Positions 657-60,486 of a stretch of DNA of 64,000 nucleotides are shown piece after piece (positions within the stretch are counted from its first letter, which is position 1; each line of letters starts with the position of its first letter). Location of the stretch: the NCBI RefSeq assembly GCF_013122565.1, contig NZ_CP053258.1; one strand, 5' to 3'. The translations under genes were made by a program, and so were the position numbers. Below the pieces are notes generated by a model. The model was not told where the DNA came from. It ran no database searches and saw only the letters and a list, made by a program, of their open reading frames with translations. This stretch comes from Escherichia coli (GTDB lineage Bacteria > Pseudomonadota > Gammaproteobacteria > Enterobacterales > Enterobacteriaceae).

Positions 657-888
657 CGTCATCCTCCAGCGGGATATCGCGATAGATAAATCTCACCATC
701 GCCCAGCACAGGCCAATAAACAGCAGCGGCGTCAGAATGCAGGCCATCTCAAACCAGCGCGGAAAGCCGGTAAAACCGGGAGCAACGCCAGGTAAGTAAG
801 CGGCTACTAACCATACCGCCAGATACAAAAGGGTTAGCCCCAGCGCCCAGCGCGCCTCTTTATGAGCCTGAACAAAACGTGTGTCCAC
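646..888 (-). CDS. yhdT: Small inner-membrane protein YhdT (DUF997)
   Basis: 80-aa ORF with two hydrophobic segments; GTG start with GAGGAGG RBS upstream; overlaps panF start as in the yhdT-panF operon. Confidence 0.85.
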   Translation of the reverse strand: MDTRFVQAHKEARWALGLTLLYLAVWLVAAYLPGVAPGFTGFPRWFEMACILTPLLFIGLCWAMVRFIYRDIPLEDDDAA

Positions 889-980
889 GGAAGGTTTCCT
901 CCTCTCGGGGGGATACGAGAAACGGGCAATTCTACGGCAACTCTTCAGGCAGGGAAAATAATCTGACAGAAAATTGCCGT

Positions 981-1937
981 TCAGTGCTGCTGCAAAAAGT
1001 CTTCAATGTCAGCCAGTGAGGATATCCCTTCCATCGGACCTTGCCGCATTACGGCGAGCGCGCCGCTGGCATTTGCATATTGCAGTGCCTTATGTGCCGG
1101 GAAACCGGATAAGAAAAGAGTGATAAACGTTGCGCCAAAGCAGTCGCCTGCACCCGTTGGATCGATAATTTCGATATCGTGGCCTGTAACATGCTGGGCG
1201 TGTAATGTACCGTTTTTAAGCTTGTAATAGCTGGCCCCACGCTGGGCGCGTTTTATCGCCACATGTTTTACGCCGCCGTGGAGAAGATCGCTAACAATCT
1301 GTTCTTCTGACAGATTTTTGTGACGCGCGAAGAAAGGGAGTTCGCTTTCGCTGGGGATAAAAATATCCGTATATTCAATTAAATAATCGAGGGCCTGCGC
1401 CATTTCAGGAATGCTCAGCATCTCTTTGCGAATATTGGGATCGAAAGAAACGGTGCCGCCAGCCGATTTGATCGTCGTTATTGCTTTACGCATGACATCG
1501 ATCATGCGAAATGAGAACAACGATGAGCCCACAATATGGAGATGGTTACACTGTTTTAGCAGATCCTTATCAATGTGCTCAGCAGTAAACAAACCGCAGG
1601 CGCTGTTAGGGATATTAAAGACGAAATCCCGCTGCTGGGGATTTTGATAACTCACGAACGCCGTACCTGTGACGGCATTGTTCATAACATGGATCCCATC
1701 GGTAATGACACCTTCATGGCGGAGACGCTCTATAATGAGTCGGCCAAAATCATCATTACCAACACATCCAAAGAAGATGGCCCGATGGGACAGTTTTGCC
1801 ACCTGAGCAGCAAAAATTGCTGGCGCACCGCTGGGAAATGGCCCGATAAACTCCCCAGGCTGAGTGAATTTTTGATGTGGGTTGCGGGACAAAAACTCGG
1901 CCAGCAATTCGCCCATAGCGCAGATAGTTATTGTCAC
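981..1937 (-). CDS. PfkB-family carbohydrate kinase (island kinase 1)
   Basis: ORF 981..1991; probable GTG start at 1937 preceded by GAGAGGGG RBS (longest ORF would overlap the upstream regulator). Clear paralog of the kinase at 7472..8434 (shared blocks GPxPSGAPAIF, FDPNIRKEMLxIPEM, DPTGAGDCFG, ALQYANAxGALAVxRxGPMEG). Confidence 0.8.
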   Translation of the reverse strand: MTITICAMGELLAEFLSRNPHQKFTQPGEFIGPFPSGAPAIFAAQVAKLSHRAIFFGCVGNDDFGRLIIERLRHEGVITDGIHVMNNAVTGTAFVSYQNPQQRDFVFNIPNSACGLFTAEHIDKDLLKQCNHLHIVGSSLFSFRMIDVMRKAITTIKSAGGTVSFDPNIRKEMLSIPEMAQALDYLIEYTDIFIPSESELPFFARHKNLSEEQIVSDLLHGGVKHVAIKRAQRGASYYKLKNGTLHAQHVTGHDIEIIDPTGAGDCFGATFITLFLSGFPAHKALQYANASGALAVMRQGPMEGISSLADIEDFLQQH

Positions 1938-1947
1938 AAAACCCCTC

Positions 1948-2778
1948 TCATTCCTGAAGCCTTTCGCGATTGGACCAGGTAAAGCACTCATTACTGGTAT
2001 AAAGGATAACGAAATCAGCCGACTGCAATTGTTGCTGATATTGTTCGTTAATGCTGCGGCTGACGATCACATTTTCTGCCTGATGCAAATGCCCGATAGC
2101 AGCCGTTGATGGCGCAGGGTCGGCGGCAACGATAACTGTCTTATTCTGGGCATGATCGAAACAGAGCTGCCAGGCAGCGGCAAGTCTGGGAACGTTGATA
2201 TTTAAGGTACCATCAGCATCCAGAAGGCTGATTTCCAGAATGCTGTGTGTAATGGTGAAATGCTGAAGTGCCTGTTCGAGCGGTTTTCCGGCCAGTGCGG
2301 TGTCGGGGCGCAGCATTTCACTGCCAGCCAGTATTATTTCGCCATCAATAAACTGATTTGCCAGCAGCGCATGTTCGGGATCGTTGGTGATCAGACGCAG
2401 TTTTTTCACTTCGCTGAGCAAGGGAATGATCTTACGGCAGATTGTTCCATGTCCAAGAAATAGCGTGTCACGGTCGCGAATTAGCCGTGCGCAATGTCGT
2501 GCTATTTCCATTTGTTGTGCCAGAGACAATGGCGCGATCGGTTGTATCGCTTCTGGTTCAGAGGAGAGTGGTGTCGCAATAGCACCGCCAAATGATCGCT
2601 TTAAATATCCCTGTTGCTCCAGATAACTGAGATCGCCGCGGATCGTCACGCCAGAGACACCAAGTTGCGCAGATAAGTCATCAACTTTGATTTCACCCTG
2701 GGCGGCAACAATTTCTGCAATTTTTAATCTGCGTTTCAGTAGGTTAGACGATTTTCTCGGCACGTTAACACTCTTCAT
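1948..2778 (-). CDS. DeoR-family transcriptional regulator (HTH plus sugar-phosphate-binding domain)
   Basis: 276-aa ORF; N-terminal DeoR-type HTH (IAEIVAAQGEIKVDDLSAQLGVSGVTIRGDLSYLEQQGYLKR) followed by a DeoR C-terminal-like domain; directly upstream of kinase 1 on the same strand. Confidence 0.8.
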   Translation of the reverse strand: MKSVNVPRKSSNLLKRRLKIAEIVAAQGEIKVDDLSAQLGVSGVTIRGDLSYLEQQGYLKRSFGGAIATPLSSEPEAIQPIAPLSLAQQMEIARHCARLIRDRDTLFLGHGTICRKIIPLLSEVKKLRLITNDPEHALLANQFIDGEIILAGSEMLRPDTALAGKPLEQALQHFTITHSILEISLLDADGTLNINVPRLAAAWQLCFDHAQNKTVIVAADPAPSTAAIGHLHQAENVIVSRSINEQYQQQLQSADFVILYTSNECFTWSNRERLQE

Positions 2779-3974
<1,196 letters not shown>

Positions 3975-4009
3975 GACGTTGTACCCTACAAAAACAATGA
4001 GGATTGTTT

Positions 4010-4900
4010 ATGAAAAATATTAAATTACTTGGTTCAGCTATGTTGGTGAGCCTGGCATTGTTCTCGCAAAGTTCGTTGGCAAAAGAGTATAAAATTGGTG
4101 CGTCATTATTAACACAGCAACATCCTTTCTATATTGATCTTGCGAATGCCATGAAAGAAGAGGCAAAAAAAGACAATGTCAATTTAAGTGTCTCTATTGC
4201 CAATCAGGATTTAAACAAACAACTTTCTGATGTTGAGGATTTTATTACTAAAAAAGTGGATGCCATTATTATCTCTCCGGTCGATTCGAAAGGCGTCCAG
4301 GCGGCGATAATTAAAGCCGATAAGGCCGGTATTCCCGTTATCACCGTCGACGTCGCTGCGGAAGGCGTTCCGGTCGTATCGCATGTTGCGACCGATAACT
4401 ATGCGGGAGGCGTTGAAGCAGGCAAGTTAATGGGCAAACTTTTGAATGGTAAAGGTACTGTAGCCATTATTTCTTATCCGGCACTACAGTCGGTAGTTGC
4501 GCGCGTTGATGGTTTTAAGAAAGGGTTAAGCGATACTCCGGATATTAAAATTGTTGCTGAACAGCCTGGTATTACGCGGGCTGAAGCGTTAACGACTGCG
4601 CAAAACATTATGCAGGCAAATGCCAACCTGAATGGTCTGTTTGGCTTTGGTGATGATGCGGCGCTGGCAGCGGTTATCGCAGCGAAATCTGCGCATAACG
4701 ACAACATCAAAATCATTGGTTTTGACGGCATGAAAGAAGCGCGTGATGCCGTTGACAGTGAAAAAACGTTTGCGGCCGTGATTCGGCAATATCCCGATAA
4801 AATGGGTGCTAAAGCCATTGATGCCGCTGTTGATCACCTCAATGGTAAACCGGTAGAAAAAATGATCCCGGTACAACCCGGCGTTTATACAGGTAAATAG
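4010..4900 (+). CDS. Periplasmic sugar-binding protein of an ABC transporter (RbsB/PBP type-1 family)
   Basis: ATG at 4010 with GAGGA RBS (track ORF starts at TTG 4004); N-terminal signal peptide (LLGSAMLVSLALFSQSSLA); periplasmic-binding-protein type-1 fold signature by eye. Confidence 0.8.
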   Translation: MKNIKLLGSAMLVSLALFSQSSLAKEYKIGASLLTQQHPFYIDLANAMKEEAKKDNVNLSVSIANQDLNKQLSDVEDFITKKVDAIIISPVDSKGVQAAIIKADKAGIPVITVDVAAEGVPVVSHVATDNYAGGVEAGKLMGKLLNGKGTVAIISYPALQSVVARVDGFKKGLSDTPDIKIVAEQPGITRAEALTTAQNIMQANANLNGLFGFGDDAALAAVIAAKSAHNDNIKIIGFDGMKEARDAVDSEKTFAAVIRQYPDKMGAKAIDAAVDHLNGKPVEKMIPVQPGVYTGK

Positions 4901-4960
4901 TAAACATCTTCACCTCACAACAAAACGTTATTGGCGTTTTGTTGTGACACCGAGGTCATT

Positions 4961-6460
4961 ATGACGGATGTTATTCTTGATGTTTCGCATATTGCGAAGA
5001 CATTTGGTCATGTTCAGGCATTAAAAGATATTACCCTCTCTTTACGTAAAGGGCGGGTGCATACTTTATTAGGCGAGAATGGTGCCGGTAAATCGACATT
5101 AATGAAAATACTGGCCGGTGTTTATCCGCCAACCCAGGGAACGATAACACTACGTGGTGAAACCATCACCATTAATAATCCGCAGCATTCACGCCAGTTA
5201 GGGATTGCGATTATTTTTCAGGAACTGAGCCTGAGTAATAATATGACCGTGGCGGAAAATATTTATGCCAATAATGAACCGCGACGTTTTGGCATTATTA
5301 ACGATAAAAAAATGCTCGCAGATTGTCAGAATCTCCTTGCGGAACTGGGCATCCCACTGGATCCGCTAGAAATGGTCGGCAATATGTCGATGGCACATAG
5401 GCAACTGGTAGAAATTGCCAAAGCCTTAAGCTATGCAGCGGATGTCGTGATTATGGATGAACCGACATCTTCGCTAAGTGATAATGAAGCGGAGATTCTG
5501 TTTAACATTATTGAAAAATTAAAGCAGCGAGGCTGTGCGGTTATTTATATCTCTCATCGCATGGATGAAATTATGCGGATTTCAGATGATATTTCGGTGA
5601 TCCGCGACGGTGAGTATATCTCTACGCATGAAAAGAAAAACAGTGATATCCAGCATTTGATTGCCCAAATGGTTGGTCGGGAAATGAAAAATATTTGGCC
5701 AGCGCGTCTTGGGGAAAAACCGAATGAAAATGTTCCTGCAAAACTGGAAGTAAAAAATCTTTCCCATCCTTCGCTTTTTAAAGAGGTCAGTTTCGCTGTG
5801 CGTCCGGGGGAAGTCCTCGGATTTTTTGGCCTGGTGGGGGCCGGGCGTTCCGATGTGATGAAGGCGCTCTTTGGCCTCGTTTCGTATCACGGGACTGTGT
5901 TGATTGATGGTGAGGAAGTCAGGATCGCTAATCCTAAACAGGCTATTGATCATGACATTGCTTTTGTGACCGAAAACCGCAAGGAAGAAGGGTTAGTACT
6001 GATGCACGACGTCAATATGAACACGCACCATGTAGCGTTTCAATATAACGCTTCGCGGATGGGACTCATCAATCACCGACAAGAAGAGGCGAAGACGCTG
6101 CAATCAATTGCCAGAATGAACACTAAAGTGAGTTCTGTACATCAGGCAGTGGGAGCGCTGAGCGGCGGTAATCAACAGAAAATCGTGTTATCGAAGTGGC
6201 TGGAGAAAACTCCGCGTATTTTATTGCTCGATGAGCCAACGCGCGGAGTGGATGTAGGCGCAAAATTTGAAATCTATAACGTGATTCGTCAACTGGCTGC
6301 GGCAGGGACAGCAATTATTCTGGTGTCCTCTGAACTGCCAGAAGTCATGGCACTTAGCGATCGTCTGGTGGTAATGCGTAATAAAACGATTGCCGATATT
6401 TATTCATGTGAAAATTTAACGCAGACACAGGTAATGACCGCTGCAACAGGAGTACGTTAA
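4961..6460 (+). CDS. ABC transporter ATP-binding protein with duplicated ABC domains (RbsA/MglA-like)
   Basis: Walker A GENGAGKST, ABC signature LSGGNQQK, second Walker-A-like GLVGAGRS; ATG 4961 preceded by GAGG; about 499 aa, typical of sugar-importer ATPases. Confidence 0.85.
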   Translation: MTDVILDVSHIAKTFGHVQALKDITLSLRKGRVHTLLGENGAGKSTLMKILAGVYPPTQGTITLRGETITINNPQHSRQLGIAIIFQELSLSNNMTVAENIYANNEPRRFGIINDKKMLADCQNLLAELGIPLDPLEMVGNMSMAHRQLVEIAKALSYAADVVIMDEPTSSLSDNEAEILFNIIEKLKQRGCAVIYISHRMDEIMRISDDISVIRDGEYISTHEKKNSDIQHLIAQMVGREMKNIWPARLGEKPNENVPAKLEVKNLSHPSLFKEVSFAVRPGEVLGFFGLVGAGRSDVMKALFGLVSYHGTVLIDGEEVRIANPKQAIDHDIAFVTENRKEEGLVLMHDVNMNTHHVAFQYNASRMGLINHRQEEAKTLQSIARMNTKVSSVHQAVGALSGGNQQKIVLSKWLEKTPRILLLDEPTRGVDVGAKFEIYNVIRQLAAAGTAIILVSSELPEVMALSDRLVVMRNKTIADIYSCENLTQTQVMTAATGVR

Positions 6461-7450
6461 ATGACAGAGAAAACTCTTGCCAGTCCGAAACCTTCGGAAA
6501 TTCCCATTGCAAATAATTTTAAAAAAGTCTTCAGGCAATATGGCGGTATCCTCAGTGGAATGGTGGTGTTAATCATTCTGTTCAGTTTTATTAATGACAG
6601 TTTTTTTACCGCCAATAACATTACTAATATTATTCTTCAGGTTTCGATAATTGCAATTACCGCCTATGGAATGACTTATGTACTTTTGCTTGGCGATATT
6701 GATTTATCGGTCGGTTCAACCATTGCATTGATTGGCACATTTGCTGCGCTTGGGGCTTCATGGGGAATTCCATTTATTTTATTGGTCCCATTATCCATTA
6801 TTGCAGCACTGGCTCTGGGGATGATAAATGGTGGCTTGACGGCTATAGCGGGGATCCCCTCGTTTATTGTCACCGTTGCTACTATGGGGATCTTCCGTGG
6901 TATCGCTTATATCGTGACCGATGGTATGCCCATCATGATTAAAGATGATGCCTTTCTGGCGCTGGGGAATGGAGAATTTCTCTATATACCTATTCCTATC
7001 TGGATATTAATCATCTTATTGCTGATTAACCATTTCATTCTTACTAAAACAACCTTTGGACGAAAAATTTATATCACTGGTGGTAATAAAGAAGCGGCAG
7101 TTTATTCAGGGATAAATGTCACCCGCTTGAAAATTAAAGTCTTTATGATCACAGCCGTGCTGGCAGGTATCAGCGGGATGATCCTCGCCTCACGCCTCTA
7201 TTCCGGGCAACCGAATTCCGCGTTGAGCTACGAACTGGATGCTATTGCTGCGGCTGTACTGGGAGGCACCAGCCTGAACGGTGGCTATGGAACCGTGGTG
7301 GGGACGGTGATCGGCGCATTAACCATCGGCGTTATCAATAATGGCATGAACTTAATGAATGTTCCCTATTTTTACCAGATGGTGGTTAAAGGATTAGTCA
7401 TTCTTGTAGCCGTTTATTTTGACGTAAGAAATAAAAGAAAACGCAGCTAA
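6461..7450 (+). CDS. ABC transporter permease (RbsC-like)
   Basis: 329-aa highly hydrophobic multi-TM ORF; ATG immediately follows the ATPase stop (translational coupling). Confidence 0.8.
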   Translation: MTEKTLASPKPSEIPIANNFKKVFRQYGGILSGMVVLIILFSFINDSFFTANNITNIILQVSIIAITAYGMTYVLLLGDIDLSVGSTIALIGTFAALGASWGIPFILLVPLSIIAALALGMINGGLTAIAGIPSFIVTVATMGIFRGIAYIVTDGMPIMIKDDAFLALGNGEFLYIPIPIWILIILLLINHFILTKTTFGRKIYITGGNKEAAVYSGINVTRLKIKVFMITAVLAGISGMILASRLYSGQPNSALSYELDAIAAAVLGGTSLNGGYGTVVGTVIGALTIGVINNGMNLMNVPYFYQMVVKGLVILVAVYFDVRNKRKRS

Positions 7451-7471
7451 TCATTTCAAGGAATTAATCAT

Positions 7472-8434
7472 ATGAGTAAGGTCTTCACAATTGGAGAAAT
7501 TCTGGTTGAAATTATGGCGAGTAAAATCGGCCAGCCATTTGATCAACCAGGTATCTGGAACGGCCCTTATCCCAGTGGTGCGCCCGCTATTTTTATCGAC
7601 CAGGTGACACGTCTTGGCGTTCCGTGCGGCATCATTAGCTGTGTGGGGAATGATGGCTTTGGTGATATTAATATACATCGTCTGGCTGCTGACGGTGTGG
7701 ATATCAGGGGGATTTCAGTCTTACCTCTGGAAGCCACCGGGAGTGCCTTTGTTACTTATCATAACTCTGGCGATCGCGATTTTATTTTTAATATTAAGAA
7801 TGCCGCTTGCGGTAAATTATCGGCACAGCATGTTGATGAAAATATTCTGAAGGACTGTACCCATTTTCATATTATGGGCTCATCCCTGTTTTCGTTTCAT
7901 ATGGTAGACGCAGTAAAAAAAGCGGTAACCATCGTTAAAGCAAATGGTGGCGTTATTTCTTTCGACCCTAATATTCGAAAAGAGATGCTCGATATTCCAG
8001 AAATGCGTGACGCCCTTCACTTTGTTCTTGAGTTAACGGATATCTATATGCCCAGCGAGGGCGAAGTGTTGCTCTTGTCGCCACATTCGACGCCGGAGCG
8101 TGCAATCGCTGGTTTTCTTGAAGAAGGTGTTAAAGAGGTGATTGTGAAGCGCGGCAATCAAGGTGCCAGTTACTACTCCGCGAATGAGCAGTTTCATGTG
8201 AAGAGCTATCCGGTGGAAGAAGTTGACCCGACCGGTGCGGGAGACTGCTTTGGTGGCGCGTGGATTGCCTGCCGCCAGCTAGGGTTTGACGCCCATCGGG
8301 CATTACAATATGCCAACGCCTGCGGTGCACTGGCGGTAACCCGACGTGGCCCAATGGAGGGAACGTCTCGCCTTGCGGAAATCGAAGCGTTCATCCAGCG
8401 CCATGACATGTCCATTCGGGAAGCAGCACAATGA
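7472..8434 (+). CDS. PfkB-family carbohydrate kinase (island kinase 2)
   Basis: 320-aa ORF with PfkB motifs (DPTGAGDCFG, GG..N region); AAGGA RBS; paralog of kinase 1. Confidence 0.85.
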   Translation: MSKVFTIGEILVEIMASKIGQPFDQPGIWNGPYPSGAPAIFIDQVTRLGVPCGIISCVGNDGFGDINIHRLAADGVDIRGISVLPLEATGSAFVTYHNSGDRDFIFNIKNAACGKLSAQHVDENILKDCTHFHIMGSSLFSFHMVDAVKKAVTIVKANGGVISFDPNIRKEMLDIPEMRDALHFVLELTDIYMPSEGEVLLLSPHSTPERAIAGFLEEGVKEVIVKRGNQGASYYSANEQFHVKSYPVEEVDPTGAGDCFGGAWIACRQLGFDAHRALQYANACGALAVTRRGPMEGTSRLAEIEAFIQRHDMSIREAAQ

Positions 8435-9477
8435 AAAACGAAATTTGGTCGTGGATTGGCGATCTCTCGCAGGTTGCCGGAATTAAACACTATGAGTTAC
8501 GTAGTGGCAGAGCAAAGGGTACAGAAGCATTTGATGTCCGTACTGGTGCGGGACTGGCATTTACGGTGGTAAAAGATCGCGCGCTGGATATTGCATGGGC
8601 CAGCTACAAGGACACGGCGCTCTCTTTTATCACCCCCAACGGCATTGTCGCCCCCGCTTTTTTTGAGTCTCAGGGCAACGGATTTTTACGTAGCTTTTAC
8701 GCGGGGTTACTGACTACCTGCGGACTTAGCTACATTGGCACGCCCTGTGAGGATGAAGGAGAAACGCTGGGGTTACACGGGCGTTTGGCTGCGACTCCAG
8801 CAGAAGAGGTGGGGTATCGCACAGAACGGACCGACGACGGCATTGAATTTGTCATCAATGGCAAAGTACGGGAAACGCGATTGTTCGGTGAAAATCTGAC
8901 GCTGGAAAGGACCATTCGCTGCCGTTATGGCGAAAATGTGCTGCGCATTGAAGACAAGGTGACTAATCATGGTTTCACCCGCCAGCCGCTGCAAATTCTT
9001 TATCACTTTAATTACGGCTGGCCTTTATTATCGCCACAGGCAGAAATCTTGCTGTCGGCTAAAAGCGTAACGCCACGAACTCCGCATGCGGCGGAAGGGT
9101 TAACCAGTCATCTGGAGATTTGTACCCCACAGCCCGGTTTTGACGAGCAGGTTTACTATCTCACGTTGAATAGCGACAGTCAGGGGATGAGTAAAGTTGC
9201 GCTGGTGAACGCCGAACTGGGGTGGGGAATTTACGAGAAATTCGACACCATGCAGCTACCCAACTTTATCCAGTGGAAAAATTTAGGCGCGGGTGAATAT
9301 GTTATGGGACTGGAGGTCAGTAATAGTTTTCCTGACGGTCGTGATAAAGAACGAGCGCAGGGGCGTCTGCCCTTTATTGAGCCAGGGGAAACAAAGAAAT
9401 ACTGCTTTGAGCTGGGAATTGTTGATGGTGATGCTGAAATTAGCGCGTTGAAAGCGGAAATTGCAGGCTACCGTTAG
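8431..9477 (+). CDS. Conserved protein of unknown function, possibly aldose-epimerase-like fold (unverified)
   Basis: 348-aa ORF whose ATG overlaps the kinase 2 stop (ATGA), last gene of the + strand island operon; no transmembrane or signal features; family assignment is from memory only. Confidence 0.6.
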   Translation: MKNEIWSWIGDLSQVAGIKHYELRSGRAKGTEAFDVRTGAGLAFTVVKDRALDIAWASYKDTALSFITPNGIVAPAFFESQGNGFLRSFYAGLLTTCGLSYIGTPCEDEGETLGLHGRLAATPAEEVGYRTERTDDGIEFVINGKVRETRLFGENLTLERTIRCRYGENVLRIEDKVTNHGFTRQPLQILYHFNYGWPLLSPQAEILLSAKSVTPRTPHAAEGLTSHLEICTPQPGFDEQVYYLTLNSDSQGMSKVALVNAELGWGIYEKFDTMQLPNFIQWKNLGAGEYVMGLEVSNSFPDGRDKERAQGRLPFIEPGETKKYCFELGIVDGDAEISALKAEIAGYR

Positions 9478-9485
9478 CTAACGGC

Positions 9486-9521
9486 AATAAAAACGCCGGG
9501 CAGCGTTAACAGGCCCGGCGT
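9486..9521 (-). terminator. Rho-independent terminator downstream of accC (minus strand)
   Basis: GC stem CGCCGGGC / GCCCGGCG (9494..9501 and 9513..9520) followed on the minus strand by TTTTTATT; lies between accC and the island. Confidence 0.6.
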
Positions 9522-9567
9522 TGATTACGTTCTTTGCTAAGCGCGATGAACCACCGCGCGTCACAAA

Positions 9568-11398: not shown

Positions 11399-12165
11399 GA
11401 GTGGGTTCCGTACTCTTTGTTTAGTGTGATTGTGACAGGCGTTTCACCGCCGTCTGTAAAGCGTATGCCCCGACAGCTGTATGCATAGCGATAAATTCCA
11501 GCAGGCCGGGACGCCGGTCTATTTTGCCCCAGAGTGTCAATGTTAGACTTGACGGACATTGTGCAGCGATCTGCTGCTATCCTCCGGCAAAAAACAAAAT
11601 ATACCTTCGTTGCGCCAATGTCACCTTTTCCGCAGCGCAAAAACTGCGTCAGGGAGGACGAGGTCGCACATTATAACGATTTCGTAGCAATTGGCAGCTA
11701 AATACTGGTCTTATCAGGGAAGATAATCAACAGCTAACATGTAAATAACCTTCAACACCGTGTAATTTGCAACAAGCCGCACAATTCACGAAATTAGCGC
11801 CATCATCGACGGAACTTCTTATAACGTAAGGTGAAAAGCTGTAAAGCCAGCCCTGCGAAGATGAGGGGCTGCAATGAGATAATCTTCACAGACCACAAAT
11901 AATGTAGGGATGCCAGGATCGCGACAAGATAGACGACATTACGCAGCGGTTGCTGGGGATTACCCAATTTTCACTGCATCGTCTGGATAGATGTGAATGC
12001 TAAAGCACGCAAAATTAACCGATTGACAATGCTCAGCATTAAATAGGTTCGAGTGATTAATTTGTAGTCAAACAAAATCAGATTATTCACCCCATTTTGC
12101 AGAAGGTAAACTGTTTTGTCAGGCGGCAGTGCGGCTATCTGATGCTTTCAGAATTTGCCACCTGA
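11399..12165 (-). promoter_or_regulatory. accBC promoter and long 5' leader region
   Basis: About 770 bp non-coding region upstream of accB with no convincing ORF; accB is known to have a long leader. Boundaries not mapped. Confidence 0.35.
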
Positions 12166-12200
12166 CAATAAAAAAGCCGATTTGGTAGCAAAATCGGCTT
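12166..12200 (-). terminator. Rho-independent terminator downstream of the 276-aa hypothetical gene (minus strand)
   Basis: Stem AGCCGATTT / AAATCGGCT (12175..12183 and 12191..12199) with a 7-nt loop, followed on the minus strand by TTTTTTAT. Confidence 0.55.
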
Positions 12201-12263
12201 CGGTGAGTTTGCGGCATTCATCACATACTCCGACAAGCTTTTTCAAGCATGACGGAGGTTGCG

Positions 12264-13094
12264 TTAATGCAAGGTTTCTACCCAGGGATAAAAGTGACCG
12301 TTACGGCGGATGAATATCTGTGTTGTCAGAGGATGGTCATCCTCACGGAAGCATTGTTCTGTTAACTGTCGTAATGCGCTGAGATTTGCTGGCTGATCAT
12401 TGTGGGTGAAAAACAGTTTTCCTCGGGAGGGAACAGTCACTAACAGGTCGCCGCATTCAGGATCGGGTGATTGCACCCAAAGATCGTCAATGAGCATCAG
12501 ACTGGGCTCATAAGTACCCCCTGCGGAGATAACGGCAACTTTTCCATCGTTTGCGCCTGTATCAACGATTTCAGCCGTAACTTCCGGCAATATTTGCTTC
12601 AAATTACTGATGGCTTGTTCGCGGTCAATGGTCACTTCGTAGCGCATCAGATAGCGCATGGTTTCGCTACCATCTTCAGCAAACAAGATAATTAACTCAT
12701 CGTTAAAGTCTTCCCAGGCAAAATCCAGCGAGGCGTTGAGGACCTCTGGATCAGACTCATACTGGCTAAGCTGTTGGCGAACGGTATCCAGCCAGGCTTT
12801 TTCTTTAATCACCGGAACAATACAGCGCCCGGTCGGCAGCATTTCTGCAAGCTGTTTCAGCATATCTGCAGCCACTTCTTGCAGCGGGTCTGGTGCGGCT
12901 TGATAACGTTTGTAGGCATCATCAAGGGTGATTTCCACCGTTTGGTGACCCGTATCAATGCGCATCAATTTATGGTCAGTCGAAATCATGACTTTCCAGT
13001 TTGGATGATGTTGTACAACTTCATGACCAAGATGTTCGACGAAAGCTGTCCGGCTAACCGCTTTTCCCGTTAACCGATTGAATAATGATTTCAA
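12264..13094 (-). CDS. Hypothetical protein, 276 aa, function unknown
   Basis: Long ORF downstream of acuI on the same strand; probable TTG start with GAGGG RBS; own terminator; no family recognised by eye. Confidence 0.6.
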   Translation of the reverse strand: MKSLFNRLTGKAVSRTAFVEHLGHEVVQHHPNWKVMISTDHKLMRIDTGHQTVEITLDDAYKRYQAAPDPLQEVAADMLKQLAEMLPTGRCIVPVIKEKAWLDTVRQQLSQYESDPEVLNASLDFAWEDFNDELIILFAEDGSETMRYLMRYEVTIDREQAISNLKQILPEVTAEIVDTGANDGKVAVISAGGTYEPSLMLIDDLWVQSPDPECGDLLVTVPSRGKLFFTHNDQPANLSALRQLTEQCFREDDHPLTTQIFIRRNGHFYPWVETLH

Positions 13095-57266: not shown

Positions 57267-59603
57267 ATGAAGCAAATTCGTCTGCTGGCGCAGTATTATG
57301 TTGACCTGATGATGAAGTTAGGTCTGGTGCGCTTCTCAATGTTGCTGGCGCTGGCCCTCGTCGTTCTTGCCATTGTGGTACAAATGGCGGTAACCATGGT
57401 GCTGCATGGTCAGGTCGAAAGCATTGATGTTATTCGTTCTATCTTCTTTGGTTTGCTGATTACGCCGTGGGCGGTCTACTTTCTATCGGTGGTCGTCGAG
57501 CAACTGGAGGAGTCACGGCAACGTCTGTCACGGCTGGTGCAAAAACTGGAGGAGATGCGCGAGCGCGATTTGAGCCTCAACGTTCAGTTAAAAGATAATA
57601 TTGCCCAGCTAAATCAGGAAATCGCCGTTCGTGAAAAAGCGGAAGCAGAACTGCAGGAAACCTTCGGCCAACTGAAAATTGAAATCAAAGAGCGCGAAGA
57701 GACACAAATTCAGCTCGAGCAGCAATCCTCATTCTTACGTTCCTTCCTTGATGCTTCACCCGACCTGGTTTTTTATCGTAACGAAGATAAAGAGTTTTCC
57801 GGCTGTAACCGCGCGATGGAGCTGCTGACCGGAAAAAGCGAAAAACAACTGGTTCATCTGAAACCTGCTGATGTTTACTCACCGGAAGCCGCTGCGAAAG
57901 TCATTGAAACCGATGAAAAAGTATTCCGTCATAATGTGTCACTGACCTATGAGCAGTGGCTGGATTATCCCGACGGACGCAAAGCCTGCTTTGAAATTCG
58001 TAAAGTGCCGTACTACGACCGCGTGGGTAAACGTCACGGTTTGATGGGCTTTGGTCGCGACATTACCGAGCGTAAGCGGTATCAGGATGCGCTTGAACGC
58101 GCCAGCCGCGACAAAACGACGTTTATTTCCACCATCAGTCACGAATTGCGTACACCGCTGAACGGTATCGTCGGCCTGAGCCGCATCCTACTGGATACCG
58201 AACTCACCGCCGAGCAGGAAAAATATCTCAAAACTATCCATGTTTCGGCCGTCACGCTGGGGAATATCTTCAACGATATTATCGACATGGATAAGATGGA
58301 ACGGCGCAAGGTCCAGCTTGATAATCAGCCGGTTGATTTCACCAGCTTCCTTGCCGATCTGGAAAATCTCTCCGCCTTGCAGGCGCAACAAAAAGGATTG
58401 CGCTTTAACCTGGAGCCTACGCTGCCATTACCGCATCAGGTCATTACCGACGGGACGCGTTTACGGCAGATCCTGTGGAACCTCATCAGTAACGCCGTCA
58501 AATTCACCCAGCAAGGCCAGGTTACCGTGCGCGTGCGCTACGATGAAGGCGATATGCTGCATTTTGAAGTGGAAGATTCTGGTATCGGCATTCCGCAGGA
58601 TGAGCTGGATAAAATCTTCGCCATGTATTACCAGGTGAAAGACAGCCATGGCGGTAAACCTGCCACCGGCACCGGTATTGGTCTGGCCGTTTCTCGTCGT
58701 CTGGCGAAAAATATGGGCGGCGATATTACGGTTACCAGCGAACAGGGTAAAGGTTCAACCTTTACGTTGACGATCCACGCACCGTCGGTAGCAGAAGAGG
58801 TCGATGATGCGTTTGATGAAGACGATATGCCTTTACCGGCGCTGAATGTGCTGCTGGTGGAAGACATTGAACTGAACGTGATTGTCGCGCGTTCTGTGCT
58901 GGAAAAATTAGGTAACAGCGTTGATGTCGCCATGACCGGCAAGGCGGCGCTGGAGATGTTTAAACCGGGCGAATACGACCTGGTGTTGCTGGATATTCAG
59001 TTGCCAGATATGACCGGGCTGGATATCTCTCGTGAACTGACGAAGCGTTATCCGCGCGAGGATTTACCGCCGCTGGTGGCTTTAACCGCTAACGTGCTGA
59101 AAGACAAGCAAGAGTACCTCAATGCTGGAATGGATGATGTGCTGAGTAAGCCGCTTTCTGTTCCGGCGCTAACCGCGATGATCAAGAAATTCTGGGATAC
59201 CCAGGATGATGAGGAGAGTACGGTGACGACAGAAGAGAACGGTAAATCAGAAGCATTGCTCGATATTCCCATGCTGGAACAGTATCTCGAACTTGTAGGA
59301 CCGAAGCTGATCACCGACGGGTTAGCGGTGTTTGAGAAGATGATGCCGGGCTATGTCAGCGTGCTGGAGTCGAATCTGACGGCGCAGGATAAAAAAGGCA
59401 TTGTTGAGGAAGGACATAAAATTAAAGGTGCGGCGGGGTCAGTGGGGTTACGCCATCTGCAACAGCTAGGTCAGCAAATTCAGTCTCCGGACCTTCCTGC
59501 CTGGGAAGATAACGTCGGTGAATGGATTGAAGAGATGAAAGAAGAGTGGCGTCACGACGTAGAAGTGCTGAAAGCGTGGGTGGCAAAAGCCACTAAAAAA
59601 TGA
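57267..59603 (+). CDS. arcB: Aerobic respiration control sensor kinase ArcB
   Basis: 778-aa hybrid histidine kinase: two TMs, PAS, HisKA (SHELRTPLN), receiver and HPt domains. Confidence 0.95.
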   Translation: MKQIRLLAQYYVDLMMKLGLVRFSMLLALALVVLAIVVQMAVTMVLHGQVESIDVIRSIFFGLLITPWAVYFLSVVVEQLEESRQRLSRLVQKLEEMRERDLSLNVQLKDNIAQLNQEIAVREKAEAELQETFGQLKIEIKEREETQIQLEQQSSFLRSFLDASPDLVFYRNEDKEFSGCNRAMELLTGKSEKQLVHLKPADVYSPEAAAKVIETDEKVFRHNVSLTYEQWLDYPDGRKACFEIRKVPYYDRVGKRHGLMGFGRDITERKRYQDALERASRDKTTFISTISHELRTPLNGIVGLSRILLDTELTAEQEKYLKTIHVSAVTLGNIFNDIIDMDKMERRKVQLDNQPVDFTSFLADLENLSALQAQQKGLRFNLEPTLPLPHQVITDGTRLRQILWNLISNAVKFTQQGQVTVRVRYDEGDMLHFEVEDSGIGIPQDELDKIFAMYYQVKDSHGGKPATGTGIGLAVSRRLAKNMGGDITVTSEQGKGSTFTLTIHAPSVAEEVDDAFDEDDMPLPALNVLLVEDIELNVIVARSVLEKLGNSVDVAMTGKAALEMFKPGEYDLVLLDIQLPDMTGLDISRELTKRYPREDLPPLVALTANVLKDKQEYLNAGMDDVLSKPLSVPALTAMIKKFWDTQDDEESTVTTEENGKSEALLDIPMLEQYLELVGPKLITDGLAVFEKMMPGYVSVLESNLTAQDKKGIVEEGHKIKGAAGSVGLRHLQQLGQQIQSPDLPAWEDNVGEWIEEMKEEWRHDVEVLKAWVAKATKK

Positions 59604-59715
59604 CCCCGGCTAGACCGGGGTGCGCGAATACTGCGCCAACACCAGGGAAATCTTGGCTGCGCCGTAAATTATTATGATGAGTTACAAGGGCACAGCACTG
59701 TTTTTCAGGCCGCAC
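59595..59715 (-). ncRNA. arcZ: Small regulatory RNA ArcZ (SraH/RyhA), convergent with and overlapping the arcB 3' end
   Basis: Minus-strand sequence GTGCGGCCTGAAAAACAGTGCTGTGCCCTTGTAACTCATCATAATAATTTACGGCGCAGCCAAGATTTCCCTGGTGTTGGCGCAGTATTCGCGCACCCCGGTCTAGCCGGGGTCATTTTTT matches ArcZ as I recall it, including the terminator hairpin CCCCGG-TCTAG-CCGGGG and U-tract. Confidence 0.8.
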
Positions 59716-59832
59716 GCAGTTAAGATAGCAAAACTTAAATGATTTGTTACATGAATCAGTTAAATGTGTGATGCGTACCATTTTTATTAAAAAAATTAAT
59801 GTGTTTCAGTCAATTGCGAAAGGATGATCACA

Positions 59833-60486
59833 ATGAAGAAAATTGGCGTAATTCTGAGCGGATGCGGCGTCTATGACGGTTCTGAAATTCATGAAGCGGT
59901 GTTGACGTTGTTAGCTATTTCACGCAGCGGTGCGCAGGCGGTCTGCTTTGCACCGGATAAGCAGCAGGTTGATGTTATCAATCATTTAACTGGCGAAGCG
60001 ATGACGGAAACGCGCAATGTGCTGATTGAAGCGGCACGAATAACGCGCGGTGAAATCCGTCCTCTGGCCCAGGCCGATGCCGCTGAACTGGATGCGTTGA
60101 TTGTGCCGGGGGGTTTTGGCGCGGCGAAGAATTTAAGCAATTTTGCCAGTCTTGGTAGCGAATGCACCGTTGACCGTGAATTAAAGGTGCTGGCACAAGC
60201 GATGCATCAGGCCGGAAAACCGCTTGGTTTTATGTGTATTGCCCCGGCGATGCTGCCGAAAATTTTCGATTTCCCGCTGCGTTTGACCATCGGTACTGAT
60301 ATCGATACCGCAGAAGTGCTGGAAGAGATGGGCGCGGAGCATGTGCCGTGTCCTGTCGATGATATCGTGGTTGATGAAGACAATAAGATTGTCACCACCC
60401 CAGCATATATGCTGGCGCAGAACATTGCAGAAGCGGCGAGCGGCATTGATAAGCTGGTTTCCCGCGTGCTGGTTCTGGCTGAATGA
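59833..60486 (+). CDS. elbB: DJ-1/PfpI-family glyoxalase-like protein ElbB
   Basis: 217-aa product [23 protein letters not shown].... Confidence 0.9.

Follow-up and report, generated by a model that had tools for sequence, protein, structure and literature searches.

The arcZ gene and its transcript

The stretch of DNA analyzed here (64,000 nucleotides, hereafter the window) comes from an Escherichia coli strain other than K-12 and carries the gene order yhcC-arcB-arcZ-elbB-mtgA-yrbL, of which the part from yhcC to mtgA is the same as in K-12. The window is collinear with K-12 positions 3408262..3346292 (reverse-complemented, 97-99% identity), and the arcZ region could be found in 5416 of 5426 complete E. 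coli genomes, 4169 of those at 99% identity or more. The copy of arcZ found here is an already known and ordinary gene in its usual place, tail-to-tail with arcB. The features of the two genes are as follows:

57267..59603, plus strand: arcB, sensor histidine kinase of the ArcAB two-component system (778-aa open reading frame)
59595..59715, minus strand: arcZ gene, 121-nt primary transcript, formerly SraH/RyhA (RF00081 and identity to K-12 b4450)
59715, minus strand: transcription start, +1 G (curated K-12 start)
59648..59652, minus strand: RNase E motif GA|UUU, ArcZ 64-68 (consensus RN|WUU, from PMC11331407)
59595..59650, minus strand: 56-nt RNase E-processed active form, the 3' part (last 56 nt; form and activity from PMC11331407)
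59632..59647, minus strand: conserved box CCCUGGUGUUGGCGCA, the seed region (exact match, ArcZ 69-84; role from PMC11331407)
59622..59636, minus strand: internal hairpin GCGC-AGUAUUC-GCGC, ArcZ 80-83/91-94 (Rfam consensus and alifold of 94 orthologs)
59603..59621, minus strand: Rho-independent terminator hairpin (terminator scan; 8 pairs, 6 of them G-C, loop of 3)
59595..59600, minus strand: U6 tail, presumed Hfq-binding 3' end, complementary to the final two Lys codons of arcB
59595..59603, both genes: arcZ/arcB coding overlap of 9 nt, that is, two Lys codons and the stop (same in K-12, 3350689..3350697)

By scanning the whole 64-kb window on both strands against Rfam 15 at gathering thresholds, a single family, ArcZ, could be identified. 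The model RF00081 matched 59715..59608 on the minus strand with 120.8 bits (gathering score 66, E 4.1e-27) and over its full length (1-106 of 106, not truncated); a score near twice the gathering score with such an E value is far beyond chance. The model stops within the terminator, and the last 13 nt, GGGGUCAUUUUUU, finish the hairpin and the U-tail to 59595. The complete minus-strand sequence of 59595..59715 is GUGCGGCCUGAAAAACAGUGCUGUGCCCUUGUAACUCAUCAUAAUAAUUUACGGCGCAGCCAAGAUUUCCCUGGUGUUGGCGCAGUAUUCGCGCACCCCGGUCUAGCCGGGGUCAUUUUUU (121 nt). In an alignment to E. coli K-12 MG1655, all 271 bases of 59560-59830 were equal, and the curated K-12 ncRNA gene arcZ (b4450; 3350577..3350697, 121 nt), the experimentally characterized type member, mapped to 59715..59595 to the base, with 121 of 121 positions identical. 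The original prediction, which had assigned this minus-strand stretch to ArcZ and proposed an Rfam/Infernal search and a K-12 alignment as checks, was thus borne out by both.

Each testable sequence-level mark of the ArcZ family was present, namely the score with the model, identity with the type member, synteny with arcB, the core box with its RNase E site and the terminator. Taking these together, the best explanation as a whole is almost certainly that 59595..59715 is E. coli arcZ, with a function as described in the literature; no observation spoke against this identification. Natural loss-of-function alleles of arcZ have been described in Dickeya solani IPO2222 and in some Salmonella and Yersinia strains (PMC11331407), and the present copy might likewise be an inactive allele in which, as in those strains, a single-nucleotide change prevents processing by RNase E. 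However, it matches the functional K-12 allele at all 121 nt as well as in its promoter and terminator, which already refutes such a reading and leaves it with a negligible probability, the lowest that we assign here; inactivity could be conceived only through a trans-acting defect elsewhere in the genome (hfq or rne).

For the identical K-12 sequence, a minus-strand primary transcript from +1 has been reported by 5'RACE and transcription start site profiling (cited in PMC11331407), and Hfq binding and processing to about 56 nt have been reported in vivo (PMC11331407). ArcZ is Hfq-dependent, and the stable 56-nt 3' fragment released by RNase E is the active species; the CCCUGGUGUUGGCGCA box is the target-pairing region and also directs the unique RNase E cleavage (PMC11331407). 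In the window, a cut after ArcZ position 65 leaves exactly 56 nt, and the CCCUGGUGUUGGCGCA box (59647..59632) sits within a 34-nt core (ArcZ 66-99), directly after the GA|UUU site (59652..59648). The seed-containing 3' portion expected by the original prediction is therefore present, and so is the terminator, at 59621..59603 and followed by CATTTTTT.

The terminator also helps to decide whether a separate gene exists here at all. The stretch directly follows the arcB stop codon, and its CCCCGG...CCGGGG palindrome would form in the arcB transcript too, as expected if the stretch were merely the arcB 3' UTR with its terminator. However, the T-run after the hairpin occurs on the minus strand only, and the site at 59621..59603 on this strand was the sole terminator-like site that the scan of 59400-59900 returned on either strand, with no plus-strand terminator. 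In addition, the ArcZ covariance model is matched over its full length by the minus strand, the curated K-12 record has an ncRNA gene at this place, and a putative conserved extended -10 promoter lies upstream on the minus strand. We consider it extremely improbable that this stretch is only the end of the arcB transcript. The proposal of an arcB terminator alone was rejected, as the terminator scan had its hit on the minus strand alone.

ArcZ activates translation of rpoS and regulates many other targets (PMC11331407, PMC10948607); its reported reach extends to as much as 10% of a genome, including RpoS, motility, mutagenesis and virulence. It is expressed under aerobic conditions and in stationary phase, and is repressed by ArcB/ArcA at low oxygen (PMC11331407, PMC4152358, PMC10948607). 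Given the identity to K-12, the course described in the literature would be predicted here as well: the primary transcript would bind Hfq, and RNase E would cleave it at GA|UUU to give the 56-nt 3' fragment, whose single-stranded CCCUGGUGUUGGCGCA box would base-pair with many mRNAs. The inhibitory hairpin of the rpoS leader would be opened and translation activated, whereas mutS, flhDC, tpx, sdaC and the sRNA CyaR would be repressed. At low oxygen, ArcB would phosphorylate ArcA and transcription of arcZ would be repressed.

Two crude computations were made on this mechanism. A predicted duplex between ArcZ 66-99 and rpoS -200..+30 reached -26.9 kcal/mol (mean of shuffled sequences -27.5), and 276 of 500 shuffles were at least as good, so that this computation has no discriminating power. 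In the minimum free energy (MFE) structure of E. coli ArcZ, 23 of 29 seed nucleotides are paired with the 5' part. Such occlusion of the seed by the 5' part was not enriched among orthologs (mean 9.2 nt in 94 orthologs vs 11.3 nt with shuffled 5' parts), in a comparison made on MFE structures only, of related sequences, with transcription starts assumed in other species. Conserved occlusion of the seed before cleavage is thus not supported by this crude ortholog test.

Overlap with arcB and conservation among orthologs

The open reading frame at 57267..59603 is annotated as arcB in matching RefSeq genomes, and its product is identical to K-12 ArcB (YP_026207.1) at 777 of 778 positions, with S659G as the sole substitution. 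ArcB ends in ...ATKK followed by the stop (codons AAA AAA TGA, with TGA at 59601-59603), and the UCAUUUUUU tail of arcZ covers this stop and the final two Lys codons. It had been claimed that the terminator hairpin overlaps the region of the arcB stop codon. The overlap is correct for the U-tail; the hairpin itself only abuts the coding region, since its G+C stem arms (59604-59609 and 59615-59620) lie just outside the stop and only the closing A-U pair contacts the last base of the stop, 59603. The U-tail of arcZ thus doubles as the Lys-Lys-stop of ArcB.

To place this arrangement among orthologs, the 34-nt core could be used, as exact matches to it occur in at least 120 Enterobacterales species genomes, including Escherichia, Citrobacter, Enterobacter, Yersinia, Rahnella, Erwinia and Pantoea as well as Photorhabdus, Xenorhabdus, Proteus, Providencia and Morganella. 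Among the matches listed, 99 loci had enough flanking sequence, and in all 99 arcB was convergent with arcZ (tblastn with the ArcB C-terminus, 60-99% identity), the ArcB match ended at the ArcZ terminator on the opposite strand, and a U-run of 5-9 was found. An overlap of 9-11 nt was observed at 86 of these 99 listed loci (87 of 100 counting the window), and in the other 13 listed species it was 2 nt or less, with the arcB stop at or beyond the ArcZ end; loci without the overlap include Pantoea, Mixta, Morganella and Pluralibacter. These counts agree with the previous description of the overlap as usual but not universal (PMC11331407).

The ArcB ending follows the overlap closely. Lys-Lys-stop occurs at 87 of the 99 loci among the matches listed, 86 of these being the loci that overlap by at least 9 nt, whereas at the 13 listed loci without the overlap the ArcB tails differ and the ArcZ terminator is intact. 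The conserved Lys-Lys-stop of ArcB therefore seems to be a side effect of the U-tail of ArcZ.

We also measured conservation along the locus as identity to the window over the 99 distinct orthologous sequences among the matches listed. Identity was 55% upstream at -100..-41, 69% at -40..-1, 41% (with indels) in the transcribed 5' part at +1..+65, 80% in the terminator at +100..+121 and 37% past the arcZ 3' end. It should be noted that the value of 100% at +66..+99 follows from the exact-match pattern of the search and should not be taken as independent evidence; for the same reason of ascertainment, the internal hairpin is invariant among the 94 folded orthologs and carries no evidence of covariation. 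The terminator lies outside the search pattern, and its pairs 100-108 and 101-107 vary between G-C, A-U and G-U with 94 of 94 sequences paired, which is real covariation. A variable 5' part together with a conserved terminator is what one would expect for an sRNA that is processed. The alifold consensus of the 94 orthologs contained just the two 3' hairpins and not the 5' stem-loop known from the Rfam consensus, probably owing to poor alignment of the variable 5' part.

The same comparison bears on whether the locus could be coding or have a dual function. A minus-strand open reading frame at 59781..59593 (62 aa) is present in the mechanically produced list, and its frame is open from the GUG at ArcZ +1 to a UAG after the U-tail, so that a small protein might be encoded. 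However, transcription has been mapped to start 66 nt downstream of its ATG (59781), which hence is not in the RNA. The equivalent of +1..+65 contains a stop in 74 of 99 orthologs among the matches listed (median open reading frame 5 aa), and an indel-rich 5' part joined to a 3' part in which the nucleotides themselves are conserved points to an RNA and not to a protein. A coding role for this frame appears to have hardly any chance of being correct, and we rejected it as a gene on account of the ATG outside the transcript and the frame broken in those 74 of 99 listed orthologs.

Upstream region and regulation

The region upstream of the transcription start contains several candidate regulatory elements:

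59722..59730, minus strand: putative extended -10 element, TATCTT (59727..59722, -12..-7) preceded by TGC (by eye from the curated +1)
59745..59750, minus strand: putative -35-like element GTAACA with a 17-nt spacer (sequence and conservation)
59742..59773, minus strand: conserved upstream block, about -58 to -27, candidate operator (conservation in 99 orthologs)

On the basis of the curated start and conservation, TGC and TATCTT would form the extended -10 promoter of arcZ; the segment TTTGCTAT.TT is strongly conserved among the 99 orthologs. The GTAACA hexamer lies in a conserved TGTAACA (-36..-30), the complement of which is an ArcA-type TGTTA half-site. Scored by eye, the -10 together with this weak -35 element reaches 8/12, which is below the 9/12 cutoff of the sigma-70 promoter scan; the scan of 59400-59900 was therefore silent, and nothing was reported at that cutoff.

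The block at -58..-27 is among the best-conserved stretches of the locus. Most of its positions are 80-100% identical to the window across the 99 sequences, as compared with about 40% in the transcribed 5' part, and it includes a conserved ACACATTTAAC at -54..-44. Such conservation suggests that some factor very probably binds this candidate operator. We searched for ArcA boxes with a 15-nt consensus, and the best matches were two sites with 5/15 mismatches, at -34..-20 and -54..-40; about 0.2 matches with 5 mismatches are expected per 115 nt of the window, and more in AT-rich DNA. The primary study for direct binding of ArcA at arcZ is said to be that of Mandin & Gottesman 2010 (EMBO J 29:3094). 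A review states that phosphorylated ArcA binds the arcZ promoter (PMC11331407), and ChIP-seq gave no ArcA site upstream of arcZ (Park et al. 2013, PMC3798270). Considering the negative ChIP-seq result and the weak boxes, direct binding by ArcA rests on the 2010 study, and in view of the former the block may serve a regulator other than, or besides, ArcA.

The arcZ and arcB transcripts affect each other negatively (PMC11331407, PMC4152358, PMC10948607). The original prediction regarded the overlap as the known arrangement for mutual regulation of ArcB and ArcZ. This is right as far as the association is concerned; a demonstrated mechanism is another matter, since antisense action is 'speculated' in a 2024 review and 13 of the 99 listed species lack the overlap. 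The cross-effect would probably involve either antisense pairing or transcriptional interference over the convergent overlap. The absence of a plus-strand terminator from the scan of 59400-59900 would allow transcription to continue past the arcB stop and cover a large part or the whole of arcZ in antisense, beyond the 9 nt of the overlap; such read-through may give transcriptional interference or a duplex of 121 nt. We tentatively suggest, as a somewhat doubtful possibility, that arcB read-through antisense across arcZ and its promoter, and not the 9-nt overlap, is what represses, and that the block at -58..-27 serves a regulator that is not ArcA or acts in addition to it.

Significance and comparison with known systems

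The PGAP annotation of a RefSeq genome that is otherwise identical lacks arcZ, and, as the original prediction had pointed out, the gene escapes a view based on open reading frames only, since such finders cannot see it. Flagging it correctly thus completes the map of the window, although the annotation value is slight. ArcZ is biologically a major regulator, all of which is established, and nothing new follows from its presence here because this copy does not differ from the reference allele. For specialists, the points of interest are the U-tail that serves as the ArcB Lys-Lys-stop, an arcB gene with no obvious terminator of its own and the conserved upstream block.

The closest known system is ArcZ of K-12 MG1655 (b4450), with which the present locus shares all 121 nt, the promoter sequence over at least 115 nt upstream and the terminator, as well as the same neighbors (arcB convergent on one side, elbB-mtgA on the other) and the same 9-nt overlap with arcB. 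No difference could be observed in arcZ itself; elsewhere, the window differs from K-12 by an 8.7-kb sugar island, the lack of gltF-yhcF and the S659G substitution in ArcB. Orthologs in other Enterobacterales (Salmonella, Yersinia, Photorhabdus, Erwinia and Dickeya, among others) have in common with it the 34-nt core, the U-run of 5-9 and the convergence with arcB, whereas their 5' ~65 nt diverge and their terminator stems differ by compensatory changes.

Among other sRNAs, DsrA and RprA are Hfq-dependent activators of rpoS that converge on the same rpoS-leader hub by the same anti-antisense logic (PMC10948607). They are unrelated to ArcZ in sequence and respond to different signals (low temperature and envelope/osmotic stress), and they have neither an obligatory RNase E cut nor an overlap with a regulator gene. 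With respect to the overlap, the relevant comparison is GadY, a cis-encoded sRNA that is convergent with gadX, overlaps its 3' end and influences that mRNA in cis, like ArcZ and arcB. GadY acts mainly through this cis-antisense overlap and stabilizes its partner mRNA, whereas ArcZ works chiefly in trans as an Hfq sRNA, overlaps the coding sequence over a short length and has a negative effect on arcB.

ArcZ U-tail and the ArcB C-terminus

The sRNA gene arcZ (59595..59715, minus strand) and the convergent sensor kinase gene arcB (57267..59603, plus strand) share the 9 nt at 59595..59603. As compared across loci of other species carrying the ArcZ core (L005-L124), the complement of the terminal Lys-Lys-stop of ArcB at these positions is the ArcZ U-tail. 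ArcB ended in Lys-Lys-stop in 87 of the 99 species with enough flanking sequence, and 86 of these 87 were exactly the loci in which arcB and arcZ overlap by at least 9 nt. At the species loci lacking the overlap, the ArcB tail was changed and the ArcZ terminator was retained. Because the Lys-Lys ending tracked the overlap, and because the tail differed and the terminator was kept where the overlap was lost, our results suggested that the C-terminus of the ArcB protein is constrained by the ArcZ RNA. Elsewhere in ArcB, a single residue was changed relative to the K-12 protein (S659G).

The terminator scan found no intrinsic-terminator-like site on the plus strand between the arcB stop codon and elbB (59604..59830). 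Given this absence, the sequence indicates that arcB transcription may proceed onward, antisense through arcZ and into elbB-mtgA.

Upstream block, annotation and occurrence of arcZ

Upstream of arcZ, a block (TCACA.ATTT.A.TGA.TC.TGTAACA; 59742..59773, that is, arcZ -58 to -27) was strongly conserved across Enterobacterales. The consensus search gave it a weak likeness to the ArcA box, and a published ChIP-seq analysis did not find an ArcA site upstream of arcZ (PMC3798270).

The matched RefSeq genome NZ_AP018808.1 (locus 2998..3228) was 100% identical to the window over the arcZ region. Its PGAP annotation leaves the stretch between elbB and arcB without an arcZ feature, whereas the curated K-12 record gives one; thus, the sRNA is missed by routine annotation as well as by ORF views. 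Among 5426 complete E. coli genomes, 10 had no match to the arcZ region and 54 further genomes had less than 80% of it covered by matches. Some genomes carried two copies, and one copy lay on a plasmid record. Such missing, partial, duplicate or plasmid matches may reflect deletions, IS insertions or assembly issues.

Differences from K-12 elsewhere in the window

The window also differs from K-12 at the following features:

12264..13094 (-), intact ORF of 276 aa overlapping region 12096..12951
49620..49673, 54-bp junction linking the gltD end to the region upstream of yhcG
888..9567, insertion of 8.7 kb between yhdT and accC

Region 12096..12951 could not be aligned to K-12, which has yrdE/yrdF pseudogene fragments there, and was present at full length in only 666 of the 5426 E. 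coli genomes. Its ORF, annotated as 'hypothetical protein' (in one record as 'DUF1444 domain-containing protein'), matched no Pfam family at E<=0.001. In most lineages of E. coli, this gene appears to be undergoing decay. The K-12 block gltF-yhcA-yhcD-yhcE(IS5)-yhcF (7.1 kb; K-12 3360619..3367698) was missing from the window. The 8.7-kb insertion encodes two PfkB kinases, a DeoR regulator, a class II aldolase, a periplasmic sugar-binding protein, an ABC ATPase and permease, and a DUF4432/aldose-epimerase-like protein. It was found in 1422 of the 5426 genomes, with a top identity of only 98.8%, and it looks like a sugar-utilisation island.
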